DNA of 64,000 bases from Octopus vulgaris. Its lineage: Eukaryota. The notes beneath the pieces are model-generated. The model was not told the origin of the DNA. It saw only the letters and a list, made by a program, of their open reading frames with translations, and made no database searches. Position numbers and translations under genes: made by a program. Location of the stretch: contig OX597817.1 in assembly GCA_951406725.2 (NCBI GenBank), positions 1,488,001 through 1,552,000 of the forward strand, in the 5' to 3' direction. Within the stretch, counting starts at the first letter, position 1, and each line of letters begins with the position of its first letter. Shown here in pieces: positions 3,030 through 60,342 of the stretch.

Positions 3030-3580
3030 AGAGAACTGTGAAGAGGAGAGGAAAAAATTGGAGACAGGATGAAAAACAAGGAGGGGAGAAGTTTATGTGT
3101 CTGTCTGTCTGACAGACTGTGTGTTTGTCTGTTGTCTGTCTATCGGTTTATTTCTCTTTCTCATTCCATATATCCTCCAATTTTTTCCTCTCCCGTTCAT
3201 AGTTCTCTGTCTGTCACACTCTTTCCCTCACTCTTCCTCCCTTTCTCACATGGGTTCCACGTGACCATCGGCCATCTTTCTTCTCCTAACTCGTGTTTCT
3301 TTCTTTCTCTCCGTTGTAGCTGGATCAAGGAAGACGTGTTATTGTCTGTTTCATGTCCAAGCTTGATGTACACGTTCGCCACCACAACCTCGTTTAGGCT
3401 TAGCTCCCATTCCTGTTTGTTTTCGCTGTCCTGTTTGTGTTACCAATTTTGACACTCCGCAACATCCCAAATTTTATTTAATTAGCTTTGCGGGAGCAAC
3501 TGTTTTATCGAAAGCGAATCTTGTTGTTATATGCTCGAAATACGAGAGTAGAAAAACAGCCAACAACTGATGAATTTATG
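3030..3580 (+). mobile_element. Microsatellite-embedded repeat with 5' inverted segment (homologue at 14162-14518, minus strand)
   Basis: 3030-3063 is an inverted copy of 3175-3208. About 3425-3575 aligns by eye with the reverse complement of about 14270-14415. Flanked by (TA)n/(GA)n. Confidence 0.6.
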
Positions 3581-11408: not shown

Positions 11409-11987
11409 GTTGTATACTGTCAATCTAACACGAACGTGAGAGTAGAGGGGTACACCACCGCTGTATAGCCCTAGGAAGCATCGAACGCCTCCTGATGGCT
11501 TTGACACATTTTTCCCTGTGTCCTTATATACATTTACGAAGGGGAGACAAACACCCCCGGCCACCATTCTATCGCCCCACCACCGTACATGTCTCTACGA
11601 GAGATTTAGAAATTCAGTATTTCTTATTTTGATAATCAGTGAATAGACTTCACTGAATTATAGATATATACAATTACGAAGTCGAGGCAAATATCACCAG
11701 CCGACCGGTGTCTGCTACTCTAGGCCGATGAAGGACAATGATCCTGAAACACGTGTCCCTAGATGCAGCTTCGGCGGCCGGGGGTGTTTGTCTCCCCTTC
11801 GTAAATGAATATAAGGACACAGAGAAAAATGTGTCAAAGCCATCAGGAGGCGTCTGATGCTTCCTAGGGCTATACAGCGGTGGTGTACCCCCCTACTGTC
11901 ACGTTCGTGTTAGATTGATAGTATACAACCATTCTATCGCCCCACCACCGTACATGTCTCTACGAGAGATTTAGAAATTCAGTATTT

Positions 11988-14100: not shown

Positions 14101-14161
14101 TATATGTATATATACATATATGTACATACCTACATATACATGTATTTGAATATGCATATAT

Positions 14162-14518
14162 TAGTACAGGACATCACAAAACGTAAACAACATGAAATAC
14201 GAAAATAAAAATGGGTACGCGAAAAACGAGAGAAACAAATGGAAAACAAGAGAAGTAACATAAAAAACGACTCTTCATCAGTTGTTGACTCTCCTTCTAC
14301 TCCTTAATTCGAGCACTGAACGACAATATAAGACTTTGAAGGCAGTTGCTCCCCCGAACCAAAGTAAAATTTGGGATTTGCGGAGGGTCAAAGCTGGTAA
14401 CAAAAACAGGACAGTGGAGACATACAAATAAGCCGACCGAAAACAAACATGGAGGGTCGGTAGACGAGACGAGGTAAAGTAGTGAACGCTGGAGAAATAT
14501 TGTCTTTAACAAGAGAAT
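14162..14518 (-). mobile_element. Microsatellite-embedded repeat, homologue of 3030-3580
   Basis: Shares CTGTCCTGTTT..GTTACCA..TTTGAC.CTCCGCAA.TCCCAAATTTTA...GGAGCAACTG...TGCTCGAA...CAACAACTGATGAA. Confidence 0.6.
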
Positions 14519-14544
14519 ATATATATATATACATACATATATAC

Positions 14545-14589
<45 letters not shown>

Positions 14590-14680
14590 CATACATATAT
14601 ATATACATACATACATATATATATGTATGCATGTATATATGCATATCTATCTATCTATCTATATATATATATATTTATAT

Positions 14681-17099
14681 ATACTAAGTAATTAAGGGTT
14701 TAGCAACGAATTGCCTCACCAACATACCGAATTTAGAAATAGCAGTCAAAGAGATATAGCTATTCCTTCTACTAAAAGGGGGATCTCAGTAAAAACACAG
14801 CACTTAAAAGGCAAACACAGACAGGTAAGAAAGAAAGAATGAAATGACGGCAATCCATCATGCAATTTTAAGTTACCTACAGACGTACGTTTCGAGATCA
14901 AGTTTTAGGATATCATAAGAATTAGAAAATTCTACTTTACCCAGACTTCTTCTCTCATCGGCGCAGGATACTACAATTGTGAATAATTGTATATTAAATT
15001 TTGAGATACTAGAATGCGTTATCTCAACTCGGTGTCAGAGCGAGCCAAAGCATGACCAGTACCACGAAATTCAAAGTTTGAATGAAAGTTTGTGTCACCA
15101 GCCCCCTTCCACCCGCGTGTAGCCAAGGCAAAATGCTGTGGTCATCTACTGGGATAAAATATGGTTATCAGTAATAATAAAAGGGTGAAATTAATTAATT
15201 AGGGATAATTATCAATTACACCAAGTAGATTTCGGTATGTAAAAGCCCCATTCGAGGAAAATTTAAGTAATACTAAGTAATTAAGGGTTTAGCAACGAAT
15301 TGCCTCACCAACACACCGAATTTAGAAATAGCAGTCAAAGAGATATAGCTATTCCTTCTACTAAAAGGGGGATCTCAGTAAAAACACAGCACTTAAAAGG
15401 CAAACACAGACAGGTAAGAAAGAAAGAATGAAATGACGGCAATCCATCATGCAATTTTAAGTTACCTACGGACGTACGTTTCGAGATCAAGTTTTAGGAT
15501 ATCATAAGAATTAGAAAATTCTACTTTACCCAGACTTCTTCTCTCATCGGCGCAGGATACTACAATTGTGAATAATTGTATATTAAATTTTGAGATACTA
15601 GAATGCGTTATCTCAACTCGGTGTCAGAGCGAGCCAAAGCATGACCAGTACCACGAAATTCAAAGTTTGAATGAAAGTTTGTGTCACCAGCCCCTTCCAC
15701 CCGCGTGTAGCCAAGGCAAAATGCTGTGGTCATCTACTGGGATAAAATATGGTTATCAGTAATAATAAAAGGGTGAAATTAATTAATTAGGGATAATTAT
15801 CAATTACACCAAGTAGATTTCGGTATGTAAAAGCCCCATTCGAGGAAAATTTAAGTAATACTAAGTAATTAAGGGTTTAGCAACGAATTGCCTCACCAAC
15901 ACACCGAATTTAGAAATAGCAGTCAAAGAGATATAGCTATTCCTTCTACTAAAAGGGGGATCTCAGTAAAAACACAGCACTTAAAAGGCAAACACAGACA
16001 GGTAAGAAAGAAAGAATGAAATGACGGCAATCCATCATGCAATTTTAAGTTACCTACTGACGTACGTTTCGAGATCAAGTTTTAGGATATCATAAGAATT
16101 AGAAAATTCTACTTTACCCAGACTTCTTCTCTCATCGGCGCAGGATACTACAATTGTGAATAATTGTATATTAAATTTTGAGATACTAGAATGCGTTATC
16201 TCAACTCGGTGTCAGAGCGAGCCAAAGCATGACCAGTACCACGAAATTCAAAGTTTGAATGAAAGTTTGTGTCACCAGCCCCCTTCCACCCGCGTGTAGC
16301 CAAGGCAAAATGCTGTGGTCATCTACTGGGATAAAATATGGTTATCAGTAATAATAAAAGGGTGAAATTAATTAATTAGGGATAATTATCAATTACACCA
16401 AGTAGATTTCGGTATGTAAAAGCCCCATTCGAGGAAAATTTAAGTAATACTAAGTAATTAAGGGTTTAGCAACGAATTGCCTCACCAACACACCGAATTT
16501 AGAAATAGCAGTCAAAGAGATATAGCTATTCCTTCTACTAAAAGGGGGATCTCAGTAAAAACACAGCACTTAAAAGGCAAACACAGACAGGTAAGAAAGA
16601 AAGAATGAAATGACGGCAATCCATCATGCAATTTTAAGTTACCTACGGACGTACGTTTCGAGATCAAGTTTTAGGATATCATAAGAATTAGAAAATTCTA
16701 CTTTACCCAGACTTCTTCTCTCATCGGCGCAGGATACTACAATTGTGAATAATTGTATATTAAATTTTGAGATACTAGAATGCGTTATCTCAACTCGGTG
16801 TCAGAGCGAGCCAAAGCATGACCAGTACCACGAAATTCAAAGTTTGAATGAAAGTTTGTGTCACCAGCCCCCTTCCACCCGCGTGTAGCCAAGGCAAAAT
16901 GCTGTGGTCATCTACTGGGATAAAATATGGTTATCAGTAATAATAAAAGGGTGAAATTAATTAATTAGGGATAATTATCAATTACACCAAGTAGATTTCG
17001 GTATGTAAAAGCCCCATTCGAGGAAAATTTAAGTAATACTAAGTAATTAAGGGTTTAGCATCGAATTGCCTCACCAACACACCGAATTTAGAAATAGCA
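14681..17099 (-). repeat. Tandem array of about 4.1 x 589-bp HHR-containing monomers
   Basis: Units start at 14681, 15270, 15858, 16447 and 17036 and are near identical. HHRs on the minus strand at 14876-14967, 15465-15556, 16053-16144 and 16642-16733. Confidence 0.95.
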
Positions 17100-17613
17100 A
17101 TTCAAACTTTGAATTTCGTGGTACTGGTCATGCTTTGGCTCGCTCTGACACCGAGTTGAGATAACGCATTCTAGTATCTCAAAATTTAATATACAATTAT
17201 TCACAATTGTAGTATCCTGCGCCGATGAGAGAAGAAGTCTGGGTAAAGTAGAATTTTCTAATTCTTATGATATCCTAAAACTTGATCTCGAAACGTACGT
17301 CTGTAGGTAACTTAAAATTGCATGATGGATTGCCGTCATTTCATTCTTTCTTTCTTACCTGTCTGTGTTTGCCTTTTAAGTGCTGTGTTTTTACTGAGAT
17401 CCCCCTTTTAGTAGAAGGAATAGCTATATCTCTTTGACTGCTATTTCTAAATTCGGTGTGTTGGTGAGGCAATTCGTTGCTAAACCCTTAATTACTTAGT
17501 ATTACTTAAATTTTCCTCGAATGGGGCTTTTACATACCGAAATCTACTTGGTGTAATTGATAATTATCCCTAATTAATTAATTTCACCCTTTTATTATTA
17601 CTGATAACCATAT
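17100..17613 (+). repeat. Inverted partial copy (514 bp) of the 589-bp monomer
   Basis: Sequence switches at 17099/17100 to the reverse complement of the unit, then runs into (TA)n. Confidence 0.95.
17216..17307 (+). ncRNA. Type I hammerhead ribozyme (U4C core, long stem II)
   Basis: CCTGCG-CCGATGA-GAGA...TCTC-GAAA-C-GTAC-G-TC-TGTAGG. Stem II can extend through AAGT/ACTT, GGGTA/TATCC and AGAATT/AATTCT. Predicted cleavage after C17301. Confidence 0.8.
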
Positions 17614-17658
17614 ATTTATATATACATATATGATTGTATATATATATATATATATATA

Positions 17659-17907
17659 TATCTGTAAATGTAATATGTGACAACTATTCGGTAGCCATGA
17701 TAAAACTCCGAGTTTCGGATGCCGAGGTGGAAATCCACGCCGCCATCTCTTCAGTTATCTGGCCATCGGAAAAAATGAAAGAAAAGAGGCATTTTTTTCC
17801 GATGGCCAGATAACTGAAGAGATGGCGGCGTGGATTTCAACCTCGGCATCCGAAACTCGGAGTTTTATCATGGCTACCGAATAAATGTCACATTACTTTT
17901 ACAGATA
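17659..17907. repeat. Fold-back inverted repeat with about 118-bp arms, one HHR per arm
   Basis: Arms 17659-17777 and 17790-17907, 12-nt spacer, between (TA)n tracts. Confidence 0.9.
17804..17875 (+). ncRNA. Type I hammerhead ribozyme, canonical core (mirror copy at 17693-17764, minus strand)
   Basis: GGCCAGATAA-CTGAAGA-GATG...CATCC-GAAA-CTCGGAG-TT-TTATCATGGCT, GUU site. Confidence 0.7.
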
Positions 17908-17975
17908 AATTATAAATTCCTCTATTTACATAATGTCTCTTTCATTCTTTTGTTGTCTTACCTTTTTTTAACAAT

Positions 17976-18759: not shown

Positions 18760-19655
18760 CGTTTATCGTAGTAAGTAATGTTTATCACCATGGCTGTTCC
18801 GCTGGAATTGACGTTACTACTGTTTTTAAAACCCCAGTAGAACGCCTCCTCCAGCTGGTTATCGATGCAATCTCCACTAGATATATATTGCAAGCAAGGG
18901 ATCGAACTACCATCATTTATCGACGACAATGAGACCACTAGTTCGGTTTCGAGCTATTTGTGCTTATCCTTAGTGATGGGCACCCTCCGCCAGAGATAGC
19001 AGTACTTCCCTGATCTTGCAACAAGCAAAGTAACTAGTTAGGAAATCTTTATAAGAGAACGAAAGTAATAACAACACCGAGAAGTAATATTTATCGCCAC
19101 ATCAATACGGCTATTCGACGTTAGTATCGAATTTAACTCCAGGAAGAGCCTCCTCGAGCTGGTTATCGATACAATCTGCACCCTGTATATATTGCAAGCA
19201 AGGGAGAGAACCCTTACCATCTTCTTGCAGACGGCGGGATCAACAGATCGAACGGTTTCAGTCTATTTTGTTCCCAGCTTCATTGGTGAACACCCGATCG
19301 CTAGAGAGAGCAGGAATTCGCTCCAGCTTGCAATATATATAGAACAGCAAGTGATAATCAGTCACTGATCTTGCAACAAGCAAAGTAACTAATTGGAAAA
19401 TCTCGGTAAGAGATGAAAGTAGTAATTATACTGAGAAGTAATGTTTATCGTCACTTCACTATCTCTAGCGGATGGGTGTCCACCACTGAGAATGTGCACA
19501 AGTAGCTCGAAAGCGGACGGTCTGGTGGTGCCGCCTCGCCGCTGGAAAATTGTAGCGGTTCGATCCCCTGCTTACAATATATATTGGGTGCAAATTGCAT
19601 CGATAACCAGCTAGATGAGGTGTCCTTCCGAGGTTAAAAATGGTACTAACATTGG
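18760..19655 (-). mobile_element. Decayed HHR element: about 2 tandem ~310-bp monomers plus an inverted copy
   Basis: AAGTAAT(G/A)TTTATC recurs at 18773, 19082 and 19436. About 19460-19655 is inverted and carries CCACCA-CTGAGAA...GCTC-GAAA-GCGGACG-GTC-TGGTGG (19480-19528). Confidence 0.65.
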
Positions 19656-58610: not shown

Positions 58611-59462
58611 AAAGGAGGTTTCTATTTCTTTATATACTGTTTTGATTAGTATATCTAGAAAATAGTGTTCTTTTTGTTGTATTCTGCTGTGAATTGTATA
58701 TATGTATTTATGCTATTGAGAAAGTCTTTTGAATTTCAAAAGTTTCTCCATGTTTTCATTCCATAGAATAAAACAGTCATCCAAATATCTTTTCCAATTT
58801 TCCTTTATGTAGGGGATTTCCGAATTTTATTACTCCTGATATACTGTTAGTTCCAAATAGCCCATTGTCAGGTTTGCAAGAATGGGAGCTGCCTTACTTC
58901 CCATCGCAACTCCAAATTTTTGTCGATATACAGTGGTGTCAAATATGAAGGGATTTCGCTGGAGAATAAATTCTAATGATTTAATTATGAACTATATGCT
59001 AATACGTTCTGGTATTATTCTGAATATTTTTCCATCCAGAACTGAGTTGCTTCTAATCCATAATTATGAGAAATATTAGTGTACAAGTTTACAACATGAA
59101 AGGAGACCATAAGTATCTTTTCCTTTACTCTTTTTTTTACTAGCACTATGACCCGGCGTTGCTGGGTCATAGTGCTAGTGCATGCATATACAGCTGCCTG
59201 CATGCGCACATACACGCGAGTAATGTCCAAATCTCCGACCAATCACATACAGCAAGCTGGCATTCAATTGGCGTATCAAGTTTCGGGCATTTTGATTGGG
59301 TTTTGGATAGAAAATTCACAAAAAAGTCAATTCTATTGATCTTTTAATGGCTTTGCGGGGTGACTGGGGAAATGTAAGGATGTGCACGACCACCCTTAGA
59401 CGGTTTTGAATGACCATAGAAAGTGCGAGCCCTCTAACTGAACAATTGTGGATTTGTATAAA

Positions 59463-59497
<35 letters not shown>

Positions 59498-60230
59498 GGC
59501 ATTTTGCCGTTTATATATAGAGAGATTTTGATGGGTGGTTTAACATGTACAGATCATCTTTAATGTAACTTTTAATGTATTTTAGAAGTGGTGCCAATGA
59601 AGTAATTCAATCGGTGCGTTTCACAGAATGGTCCAGCTATAATGGGCCTTAGTTTAAGGTCTCTTAGTGTGGGTGTATGTATGACTTCGGTGATTTTTAA
59701 TTGCTTCATTCATAATATGGCTTTTATGAATATTCGGTAAGCTACAGAAGGGGATGGCTTTACGCTTAAAGTTAGTTATGTAGTCTATTTCTGTTTTCAT
59801 CACGTCTTTTCCCCTTTTTCGTGTAGTTGAACTAATGTCTAGAGACTTTTCATTATTCTTCGAGGATTGTAGTCTGTGTTCTTTTCGTAGTAATCTTTAT
59901 TATTCAGCATGGATAGTACTAGGATTTTATAGTAATCAGTGTCCATCATTACTACCGCACTCCCTTTATCGGCGTCTATATTTGTTAACTCCTCATCATT
60001 TTGTAATTCAATAAACTATTTCCATTGAGTAGTGCTGAAGTTTAAGTTAATTTTTTGTATGTACAAGCTTTGGTAGGGGAAGTTTTCAACGTGGTTTCAG
60101 AACTCGTCGAGTGTTTTATTTCTACCTTGGGGGGGGGGGGTAATTTTGGTTTTAACTAGTGAATCATCTGCGATATTAGACGTAACTAGTGCTTCTGTAA
60201 GTCATATATAACCGCAAAAATGTATCATAC
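58610..60230 (-). pseudogene. Penelope-like element reverse transcriptase, decayed and interrupted
   Basis: PLE RT motifs in order: ADKGSAVVMMDTDYY, LRPIIAGPFCETH, MVSFHVVNLYTNI, GVAMGSKAAPILANLTMGYLE, WKRYLDDCF, FLDILI. Confidence 0.9.
59139..59526 (+). mobile_element. Helentron/HINE-like non-autonomous element inserted in the PLE
   Basis: Begins ACTAGC with a 41-nt hairpin (59139-59179), has (CA)n near the 3' end, ends TATATAGAGAGAT, sits in a T-run and splits the RT coding region. Confidence 0.65.
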
Positions 60231-60342
60231 CTGCTTCTACGTAAGATTAGATCAAAATCTTTTTTATGATTTCATAACACTGAATCATGATTAACGAAGC
60301 GAAACCGGTTGACTTTGTACATATTGTAATGGATTAAATAAT

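Follow-up and report, generated by a model that had tools for sequence, protein, structure and literature searches.

Introduction

Metazoan retrozymes that lack long terminal repeats (LTRs), known as non-LTR retrozymes, have been described as non-coding tandem units of 170-400 nt with a GC content below 50%, a type I hammerhead ribozyme in each unit and a stable fold; they coexist with Penelope-like elements (PLEs), and the published model is that a circular RNA is copied into tandem cDNA (PMC7229834). Here we describe an element of this kind from Octopus vulgaris, an array of 589-bp units joined to an inverted partial copy at positions 14681..17613 of a stretch of 64,000 nucleotides (contig OX597817.1, positions 1,488,001 to 1,552,000), which we refer to as the window and number from its first letter. 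The best overall explanation, which we hold with reasonable confidence, is that the element is a non-LTR retrozyme mobilised by Penelope. Its unit shares the organisation listed above and coexists with PLEs; it differs in its length of 589 nt, in the U4C change of its ribozyme core, in a 53-nt extension of stem II and in its insertions, which lie in (TA)n and consist of two head-to-head arms whose outer ends are fixed; in the main text of PMC7229834 the words 'inverted' and 'microsatellite' have 0 occurrences. As in those retrozymes, an LTR, PBS or PPT was not seen, although no search aimed at them was made. Whereas cleavage and circles were demonstrated for those retrozymes, the 589-bp family is known here from sequence alone. 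An earlier, sequence-only reading of the window had called the monomer longer than animal retrozymes, which is right when set against the 170-400 nt of PMC7229834 and wrong when set against a 2026 survey of animal retrozymes with a range of 51-972 bp and a mean of 650 bp in ray-finned fishes (bioRxiv 10.64898/2026.07.22.740005).

Both of these sources propose mobilisation by PLEs, in their available text without an insertion footprint. Li, Clavereau and Pollet 2026 (bioRxiv 10.64898/2026.07.22.740005) derive the PLE link from co-occurrence and from homology to pseudo-LTRs (pLTRs), discuss local pLTR amplification and leave the mechanism of mobilisation open; we base it on the footprint of the insertions, and the 50 PLE loci surveyed below yielded no homologous pLTR. 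PLE insertions are characterised by an inverted copy, a one-sided tail and a bias towards (TA)n (PMC8557442). More specifically, insertions of endonuclease-bearing PLEs, including non-autonomous Chlamys forms such as MRC1, resemble the octopus family in their inverted 5'-truncated head-to-head copy, partial tandems, extension at one end and microsatellite targets, and non-autonomous forms also occur as multicopy head-to-tail arrangements (PMC8557442, PMC3846280). The octopus family differs from them in having no open reading frame (ORF), in a one-sided extension of ~100 nt rather than 30-40, and in that both arms can reach several units. In plant LTR retrozymes, a type III hammerhead lies in each of two LTRs; the octopus element has type I topology and a tandem plus inverted layout and does not belong to that class. 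We found no publication on two-armed retrozyme insertions or on cephalopod retrozymes in a search that had subscription journals and preprint supplements outside its scope.

Results

The window locus is one insertion of a dispersed family

The array and its inverted arm represent a single, young insertion of a 589-bp family that is non-coding and dispersed in the genome. The longer arm, arm A, contains four full units, which begin at 14681, 15270, 15858 and 16447, measure 589, 588, 589 and 589 bp and are 99.5-100% identical, and it ends with 64 bp of a fifth unit that reaches 17099, confirming the near-identical 4.1 x 589-bp array of the sequence-only reading. Arm B comprises 514 bp in inverted orientation (517 bp when the AT overlap is counted); where it meets arm A, 5 nt (TCAAA) overlap imperfectly, with an offset of one. 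Its length and orientation had been correctly given, but the description of it as a cap missed the main signal, namely that it is a second arm with a fixed outer end. The absence of any meaningful ORF (the longest stop-free frame within the array has 84 aa) and the (TA)n tracts on both sides also agree with what had been read from the letters. As both flanks are TA-type microsatellites, the bounds of any target-site duplication are not delimitable. The unit has a GC content of 37%, and the fold of the 589-nt monomer is far more stable than those of shuffled sequences (z=-5.2). By their geometry, the two arms could possibly form a double-stranded RNA hairpin of ~500 bp.

A search of the 2.8-Gb genome for the 41-nt ribozyme junction returned 243 exact copies and 292 with at most one mismatch; these lie on many contigs, dispersed and not in one block. 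Searching with the full-length unit gave 173 matches among the 40 scored of 2061 candidates. For the analyses below, we used two sets of loci. The first comprises 73 loci, namely the window locus, 38 from the best full-length matches and 34 from the first 100 junction matches listed, and was selected for crossing the ribozyme junction. The second is unbiased with respect to the junction, since its loci were chosen by a motif between the two end sites described below (1363 matches); of its 65 loci, 11 below 85% identity were dropped and 54 were counted. This second set includes a 583-bp sister subfamily. In the first set, 47 of 73 loci have a head-to-head layout with both 3' ends outward and 26 have a single outer 3' end.

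Outer ends fall into two windows and pair as A with B

Counting unit positions from the base after the predicted hammerhead cut, we mapped the 120 outer 3' ends of the 73 loci. Sixty lie at 195-214 (site A), 36 of them exactly at 201, and 42 lie at 288-320 (site B), leaving 18 elsewhere; 102 of the 120 ends are thus contained in 53 of the 589 unit positions. DNA of alternating A and T lies directly beyond 102 of the 120 outer ends. At the window locus, the left outer end is at 201, the commonest of the family (36/120), and the right one at 312, in the site B window. Entry and exit had been read as falling at arbitrary positions of the monomer; this holds for the inner junction, which joins unit positions 138 and 388, and is wrong for the outer ends, given that 102 of 120 occupy two windows.

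The two sites are used together. Among the two-armed loci of the first set, 28 pair A with B, none pairs A with A and one pairs B with B (p=6e-8 against 0.5), and 18 more have one off-site end. The second set repeated this pattern in 54 loci, with 30 AB, no AA and one BB pair, five loci with one off-site end and 18 that are single or other. Microhomology to AT was rejected as the sole cause of the two windows: positions 127-128, 480-481 and 561 offer 4-5 alternating bases and together take 3 ends (128, 128 and 130), whereas position 201 offers 3 bases and takes 36, so that this kind of pairing is insufficient to explain where the ends lie. Distant related repeats whose ends lie near the same two sites retain the region from ~105 to 312 at 67-88%, for which reason we regard it as the likely region of recognition and initiation. 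One such relative, a repeat with a 558-bp period at L052:6100-6800, is 66-71% identical over the conserved region and has a decayed CUGAUGA hammerhead with a similar stem III. A cluster of 5' ends at 44-47 in the first set (5 against 1 expected) was absent from the second and is not relied on. From the pairing of outer ends, both arms were probably primed on one RNA at two sites.

The insertion footprint points to a Penelope-like enzyme

An inverted 5'-truncated copy, a one-sided extension and (TA)n targets are features of PLEs, and it is from this footprint that we infer the class of the enzyme; that the family is a retrozyme mobilised by a PLE appears very probable. The closest biochemical parallel is the anole Poseidon element PAc, whose protein cuts and extends both strands, uses AT-rich targets and two internal start sites and is predicted to form a dimer (Frangieh et al. 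2024, PMC11167929). The octopus family is like PAc in having two internal start sites downstream of the hammerhead, AT-rich targets and two strands that are both cut and extended. For PAc, Frangieh et al. observed neither a start site that differed between the strands nor reads that terminate where the ribozyme cuts. In the octopus family, by contrast, the two ends of an insertion nearly always start from different sites, a number of arms end close to the cut, and the AT overlap is at least 3 bases at most ends.

A PLE with a frame of 781 aa encoding reverse transcriptase (RT) and GIY-YIG domains is abundant in the octopus genome, and the frame is intact in 13 of the 13 fetched loci listed with 781 aa. 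At one PLE locus, L144, the same kind of inverted 5'-truncated copy lies in TA. We noted several further properties of these PLEs. The high-copy element with the intact frame was found at L140:2806-5148 and at 12 other loci (within L133-L152); its 3' region contains repeated GATGACGTC and ATTGGTC motifs and gave no hammerhead in a motif scan, and L135, L141 and L151 have an overlapping upstream frame of 479 aa. In the window itself, a decayed piece of a PLE reverse transcriptase, with stops and frameshifts and broken by another repeat, occupies 58614-60240 on the minus strand.

Neither an RT+GIY-YIG ORF within the element nor a PLE protein match inside the 73 insertions was detected. An autonomous partner was found neither through the GIY-YIG loci, nor by comparing PLE proteins with the family loci, nor by a search for conserved motifs. 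The GIY-YIG survey consisted of 50 loci drawn from the 150 scored of 6136 candidates; it sampled GIY-YIG-bearing PLEs only.

Hammerhead motifs and the base after the cut

As the sequence-only reading had noticed, each unit has one hammerhead; the predicted motif is type I-like and occurs four times on the minus strand in arm A and once on the plus strand in arm B. It is composed of a six-pair stem I, a CCGAUGA core (U4C), a stem II of four pairs that a long hairpin prolongs (the 53-nt extension), GAAA, a minimal self-complementary stem III and GUC. Motif scans scored four of the five copies and missed that of the third unit, where an A at the first base after the cut breaks the first pair of stem I. 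A scan of the array against Rfam gave no match at the gathering score. Sister subfamilies carry the canonical CUGAUGA core and paired changes, in stem II from GAGA/UCUC to GAAA/UUUC and in stem I from G-U to A-U, which supports selection on the predicted hammerhead structure and suggests that U4C is the derived state. The family is young, dispersed and non-coding, with a putative hammerhead in each unit and paired changes between subfamilies, and on these grounds the identification as a retrozyme holds.

Counted from the 3' end of arm A, its four motifs have U, C, A and C immediately after the cut; that of arm B has U. Genome-wide, five copies with intact flanks differ from C at position 1, three of them in the window array, and the sole A at this position in the genome belongs to the window locus. 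We rejected hypervariability of position 1 across the family, as there are 2 changes outside the locus against an average of ~1.2 per position, calculated from 49 single mismatches over 41 positions; the effect is therefore specific to the window locus. Position 1 is part of a CpG, and CpG sites vary ~2.4 times as much as the average (21/1415 against 161/26002). Any of three causes would explain the changes: the enzyme misread a junction that was nicked or oddly ligated, the template was a multimer of mixed units, or the changes are due to chance, the site being a CpG.

The template of the two arms

A non-consensus base is present in every pass at 165 site-locus combinations, 87 of which span more than one arm. 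At the window locus, four bases are fixed against the family in every pass, and two of the four are covered by both arms. At the 4330 informative site-loci of 25 two-segment AB loci, every pass carries the variant in 15 cases (5 of them unique to their locus), 1 variant is shared in register only, 2 are shared out of register, 5 are repeated within one arm and 37 are singletons. A single-unit template fits these shared variants better than a mixed multimer does, though the unique cases are few.

Stops near the ribozyme cut were also enriched. In the second set, 11 of 44 arms reaching position 21 stop within positions 1-21, whereas the count for the six windows that flank it is 13 of 237 (p=2e-4), a figure tempered by the fact that the 21-nt window was picked after seeing the data and that the arms of one locus are not independent; both arms stop in this window in 3 of 30 AB loci (p=0.002). 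These counts suggest that the ribozyme cut is where some templates end, and that the two arms were copied from a single molecule. The other 33 of the 44 arms cross the cut, for which either a circle or an uncleaved multimer is needed. Read-through is clean, with an indel within 4 nt of the cut in 1 of 166 passes of the first set. Template jumps leave indels, and end-to-end jumping between cut monomers is accordingly disfavoured as a general route. For the arms that cross the cut, we lean towards a circular template. Rolling-circle reverse transcription of a circular RNA, as the sequence-only reading had proposed, fits the clean read-through and the private variants that all units of both arms have in common; it is weakened in that a multimer fits as well and that four of seven long arms show signs of expansion after insertion.

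Among the public runs listed, none is recorded as RNA. Contigs from four runs that we guessed to be RNA cover all 30 bins of the unit and cross the cut, and give no readout of strand, circularity or RNA status. At four places where the window locus is private they match the common alleles of the family, and thus give no sign of the window locus as their source. In four other runs, none of the contigs listed spans the inversion junction; such contigs show presence, not absence.

Counter-evidence and rival explanations

Several observations weigh against a PLE-mobilised element copied from a circle. As for the enzyme, no PLE with sequence in common with the monomer was found: the monomer matched 2 of the 50 GIY-YIG loci, both times as separate short insertions in neighbouring TA tracts; in addition, none of the 73 family loci runs into an ORF, and the PLE pieces in 4 loci lie beyond the TA tracts. 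As for the cut, five of the stops are at positions 7-8, the base of stem I, where a structural stall explains them too, and the first set has a weak excess of stops near the cut (6 of 130 in 1-11, p=0.04, and 1 in 1-3). The 5' positions of the two arms show little correlation (rho 0.31, p=0.10) or a negative one (rho -0.40, p=0.05). Of the Xenopus retrozyme dimers described in bioRxiv 10.64898/2026.07.22.740005, 8 of 9 were without cleavage, and for a viroid hammerhead, U4C is reported to reduce in vitro activity considerably (PMC3088659). Finally, contigs cannot separate tandem DNA, multimer RNA and circle.

Part of this evidence bears on an unlikely but real rival, in which the same enzyme primes at the same two sites and copies a linear transcript that has read through a tandem donor and stayed uncleaved, with no circle involved. 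The anole PLE inserts from unprocessed RNA, and mutating its ribozyme leaves insertion unchanged (PMC11167929), which likewise counts against a processed template; given this and the lowered activity of U4C, a core expected to cut slowly, the multimer stays in play. At the window locus, the first pass of both arms has U at position 1, followed in arm A by C, A and C, as would be expected from a mixed multimer. An in-register test of the multimer gave a mixed outcome, and what speaks against it is that 1 variant is shared in register against 15 that are fixed at the 4330 site-loci, that no copy in the genome other than one at the window locus has A at position 1, and that no sister or donor locus with the window's private haplotype was found among the 40 scored of 1096 candidates. 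Moreover, most possible donors are short, the longest arm being 1.99 units among the 94 segments of the second set, so that arrays would shrink with each round.

A second rival, which we also consider improbable, concerns array length and is compatible with our explanation of the ends: each arm would have been short at insertion, one to two units in length, and unequal crossing-over or slippage in place would later have brought the array to 4.1 units. In the junction-selected set, arms average 0.9 unit and the longest has 2.67, which places 4.1 units in the far tail. Against growth during copying, four of the seven arms of at least four units (L045, L051, L056 and L060) hold derived variants repeated within one arm, with repeat periods of 3 in L051 and L060 and of 2 in L045 and, in L056, a derived allele in 8 of the 11 passes of one arm. 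The repeated variants of L051 are absent from its other arm, from which it follows that long arrays can grow after insertion. Arm A of the window, on the other hand, has no repeated derived variants, its variation amounting to two single substitutions and a homopolymer deletion besides the changes at position 1, and 39 of 130 segments of the first set, many in short two-armed loci, cross the cut at least twice. We also observed three G-to-A singletons (357, 500 and 583) in the third-last unit of the long arm of L038, which a deamination burst or the copying of another template unit may explain.

Third, the inverted arm might have been made by fold-back self-priming of one cDNA or from an antisense template, with the second end produced by endonuclease resolution, as for the rotifer Penelope; this we regard as quite improbable. 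Fold-back has been proposed from palindromes at inverted junctions (PMC3846280), and a minority of our loci do have near-palindromic junctions (L034 271/270, L110 7/7, L114 462/463, L167 142/142, L215 8/8 and L222 20/20); the sequence of arm B of the window is, moreover, contained in arm A. The inner ends of the window locus, 138 and 388, are nevertheless non-palindromic, and at L159, L160, L199, L206 and L211 each arm has sequence absent from the other, which excludes fold-back copying at those loci. It is very hard to credit that the locus is an artefact of assembly, or a large satellite of the ordinary kind in which a ribozyme look-alike occurs by chance: the unspanned inversion junction and the lack of an Rfam match would allow it, but dozens of loci spread over many chromosomes show the same layout, with inner junctions that differ between loci and with private variants, which makes an artefact unlikely, and the copies are dispersed, stem pairing is kept across subfamilies and four window positions differ from the family in every pass.

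Coordinates and neighbouring repeats

The features of the window locus are collected in Table 1.

Table 1. Features of the two-armed insertion in the window (TRF, Tandem Repeats Finder).
Feature	Position	Strand	Remarks
Left (TA)n-type microsatellite, target site	14517..14683	.	TRF
Arm A, 4.11 tandem 589-bp units in ribozyme sense	14681..17099	-	3' end at unit position 201 (site A), 5' end at 138
Predicted type I hammerhead motif, unit 1	14876..14967	-	Predicted cut 14882/14881; first base U (family C)
Predicted type I hammerhead motif, unit 2	15465..15556	-	Predicted cut 15471/15470; first base C
Predicted type I hammerhead motif, unit 3	16053..16144	-	Predicted cut 16059/16058; first base A, breaks first stem I pair
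Predicted type I hammerhead motif, unit 4	16642..16733	-	Predicted cut 16648/16647
Arm B, 0.87 unit, head-to-head with arm A	17100..17613	+	5' end at unit position 388, 3' end at 312 (site B window)
Predicted type I hammerhead motif, arm B	17216..17307	+	Predicted cut 17301/17302; first base U
Unit positions 105-312, likely recognition and initiation region (given for arm B; in every unit)	17406..17613	+	67-88% in distant repeats
Right (TA)n microsatellite, target site	17610..17661	.	TRF

Other repeats surround the locus. To its left, a common repeat between TA tracts at 14160-14515 has a minus-strand CUGAUGA motif and resembles a PLE 3' end; its relatives occur in 9 of 192 loci and at 3414-3574 of the window. 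To its right, at 17662-17965, a second and unrelated short head-to-head element lies in the same TA tract, with arms at 17675-17775 and 17793-17893 that are 97% complementary. By eye it has a hammerhead-like CUGAAGA...GAAA, which a strict scan left unscored; its fold is unremarkable (z=-1.1), and relatives were seen in 4 of 192 loci. Further away, a compact type I hammerhead-like motif with a CCGAUGA core (6 pairs in stem I and 4 in stem II), unrelated to the 589-bp unit, starts at 11725 on the plus strand, and 18770-19650 holds older direct and inverted repeats with a period of ~300 bp and 72-87% identity.

Discussion

The class of element to which the octopus family belongs is already known, and the window locus is unexceptional save for its length and its changes at the cut site. 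Taking the retrozyme to be mobilised by a PLE, we envisage the following course. A tandem copy would be transcribed, and its hammerheads would release 589-nt monomers, some of which a host ligase would circularise, as shown for other retrozymes. A PLE protein, perhaps as a dimer, would bind the region ~105-312 and cut both strands of a (TA)n tract, after which one DNA end would prime at site A (~201) and the other at site B (~300). On a cut, linear RNA both arms would stop near the cut, whereas on a circle they would run on, at the window locus for 4.1 and 0.9 turns. Joining of the two cDNA ends, often via short overlaps, would then give the head-to-head junction.

We put forward one more specific version of this course only tentatively. 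In this version, an enzyme dimer primes both ends of the TA tract from two sites 100 nt apart on one RNA, which is sometimes a cut linear monomer and mostly a circle, and the window copy was made from a nicked or abnormally ligated circle whose position 1 was misread on 3 of 5 passes, which would account for 3 of the 5 such changes in the genome. If true, the locus would be direct evidence that reverse transcription by the rolling-circle route has crossed a ribozyme junction in the germ line of an animal.

Which enzyme mobilises animal retrozymes and whether the circle is the template are questions left open in the available text of PMC7229834 and of the 2026 preprint, and the way in which PLEs generate inverted repeats that are tailed on one side is likewise an open question. 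The statistics of the octopus family make the mechanism testable. The intact, high-copy PLE ORF of the same genome is a candidate enzyme, and for an assay in the tube the predictions are starts near 201 and 300, one for each target strand, with extension that stops near the cut on linear RNA and runs on when the RNA is a circle.

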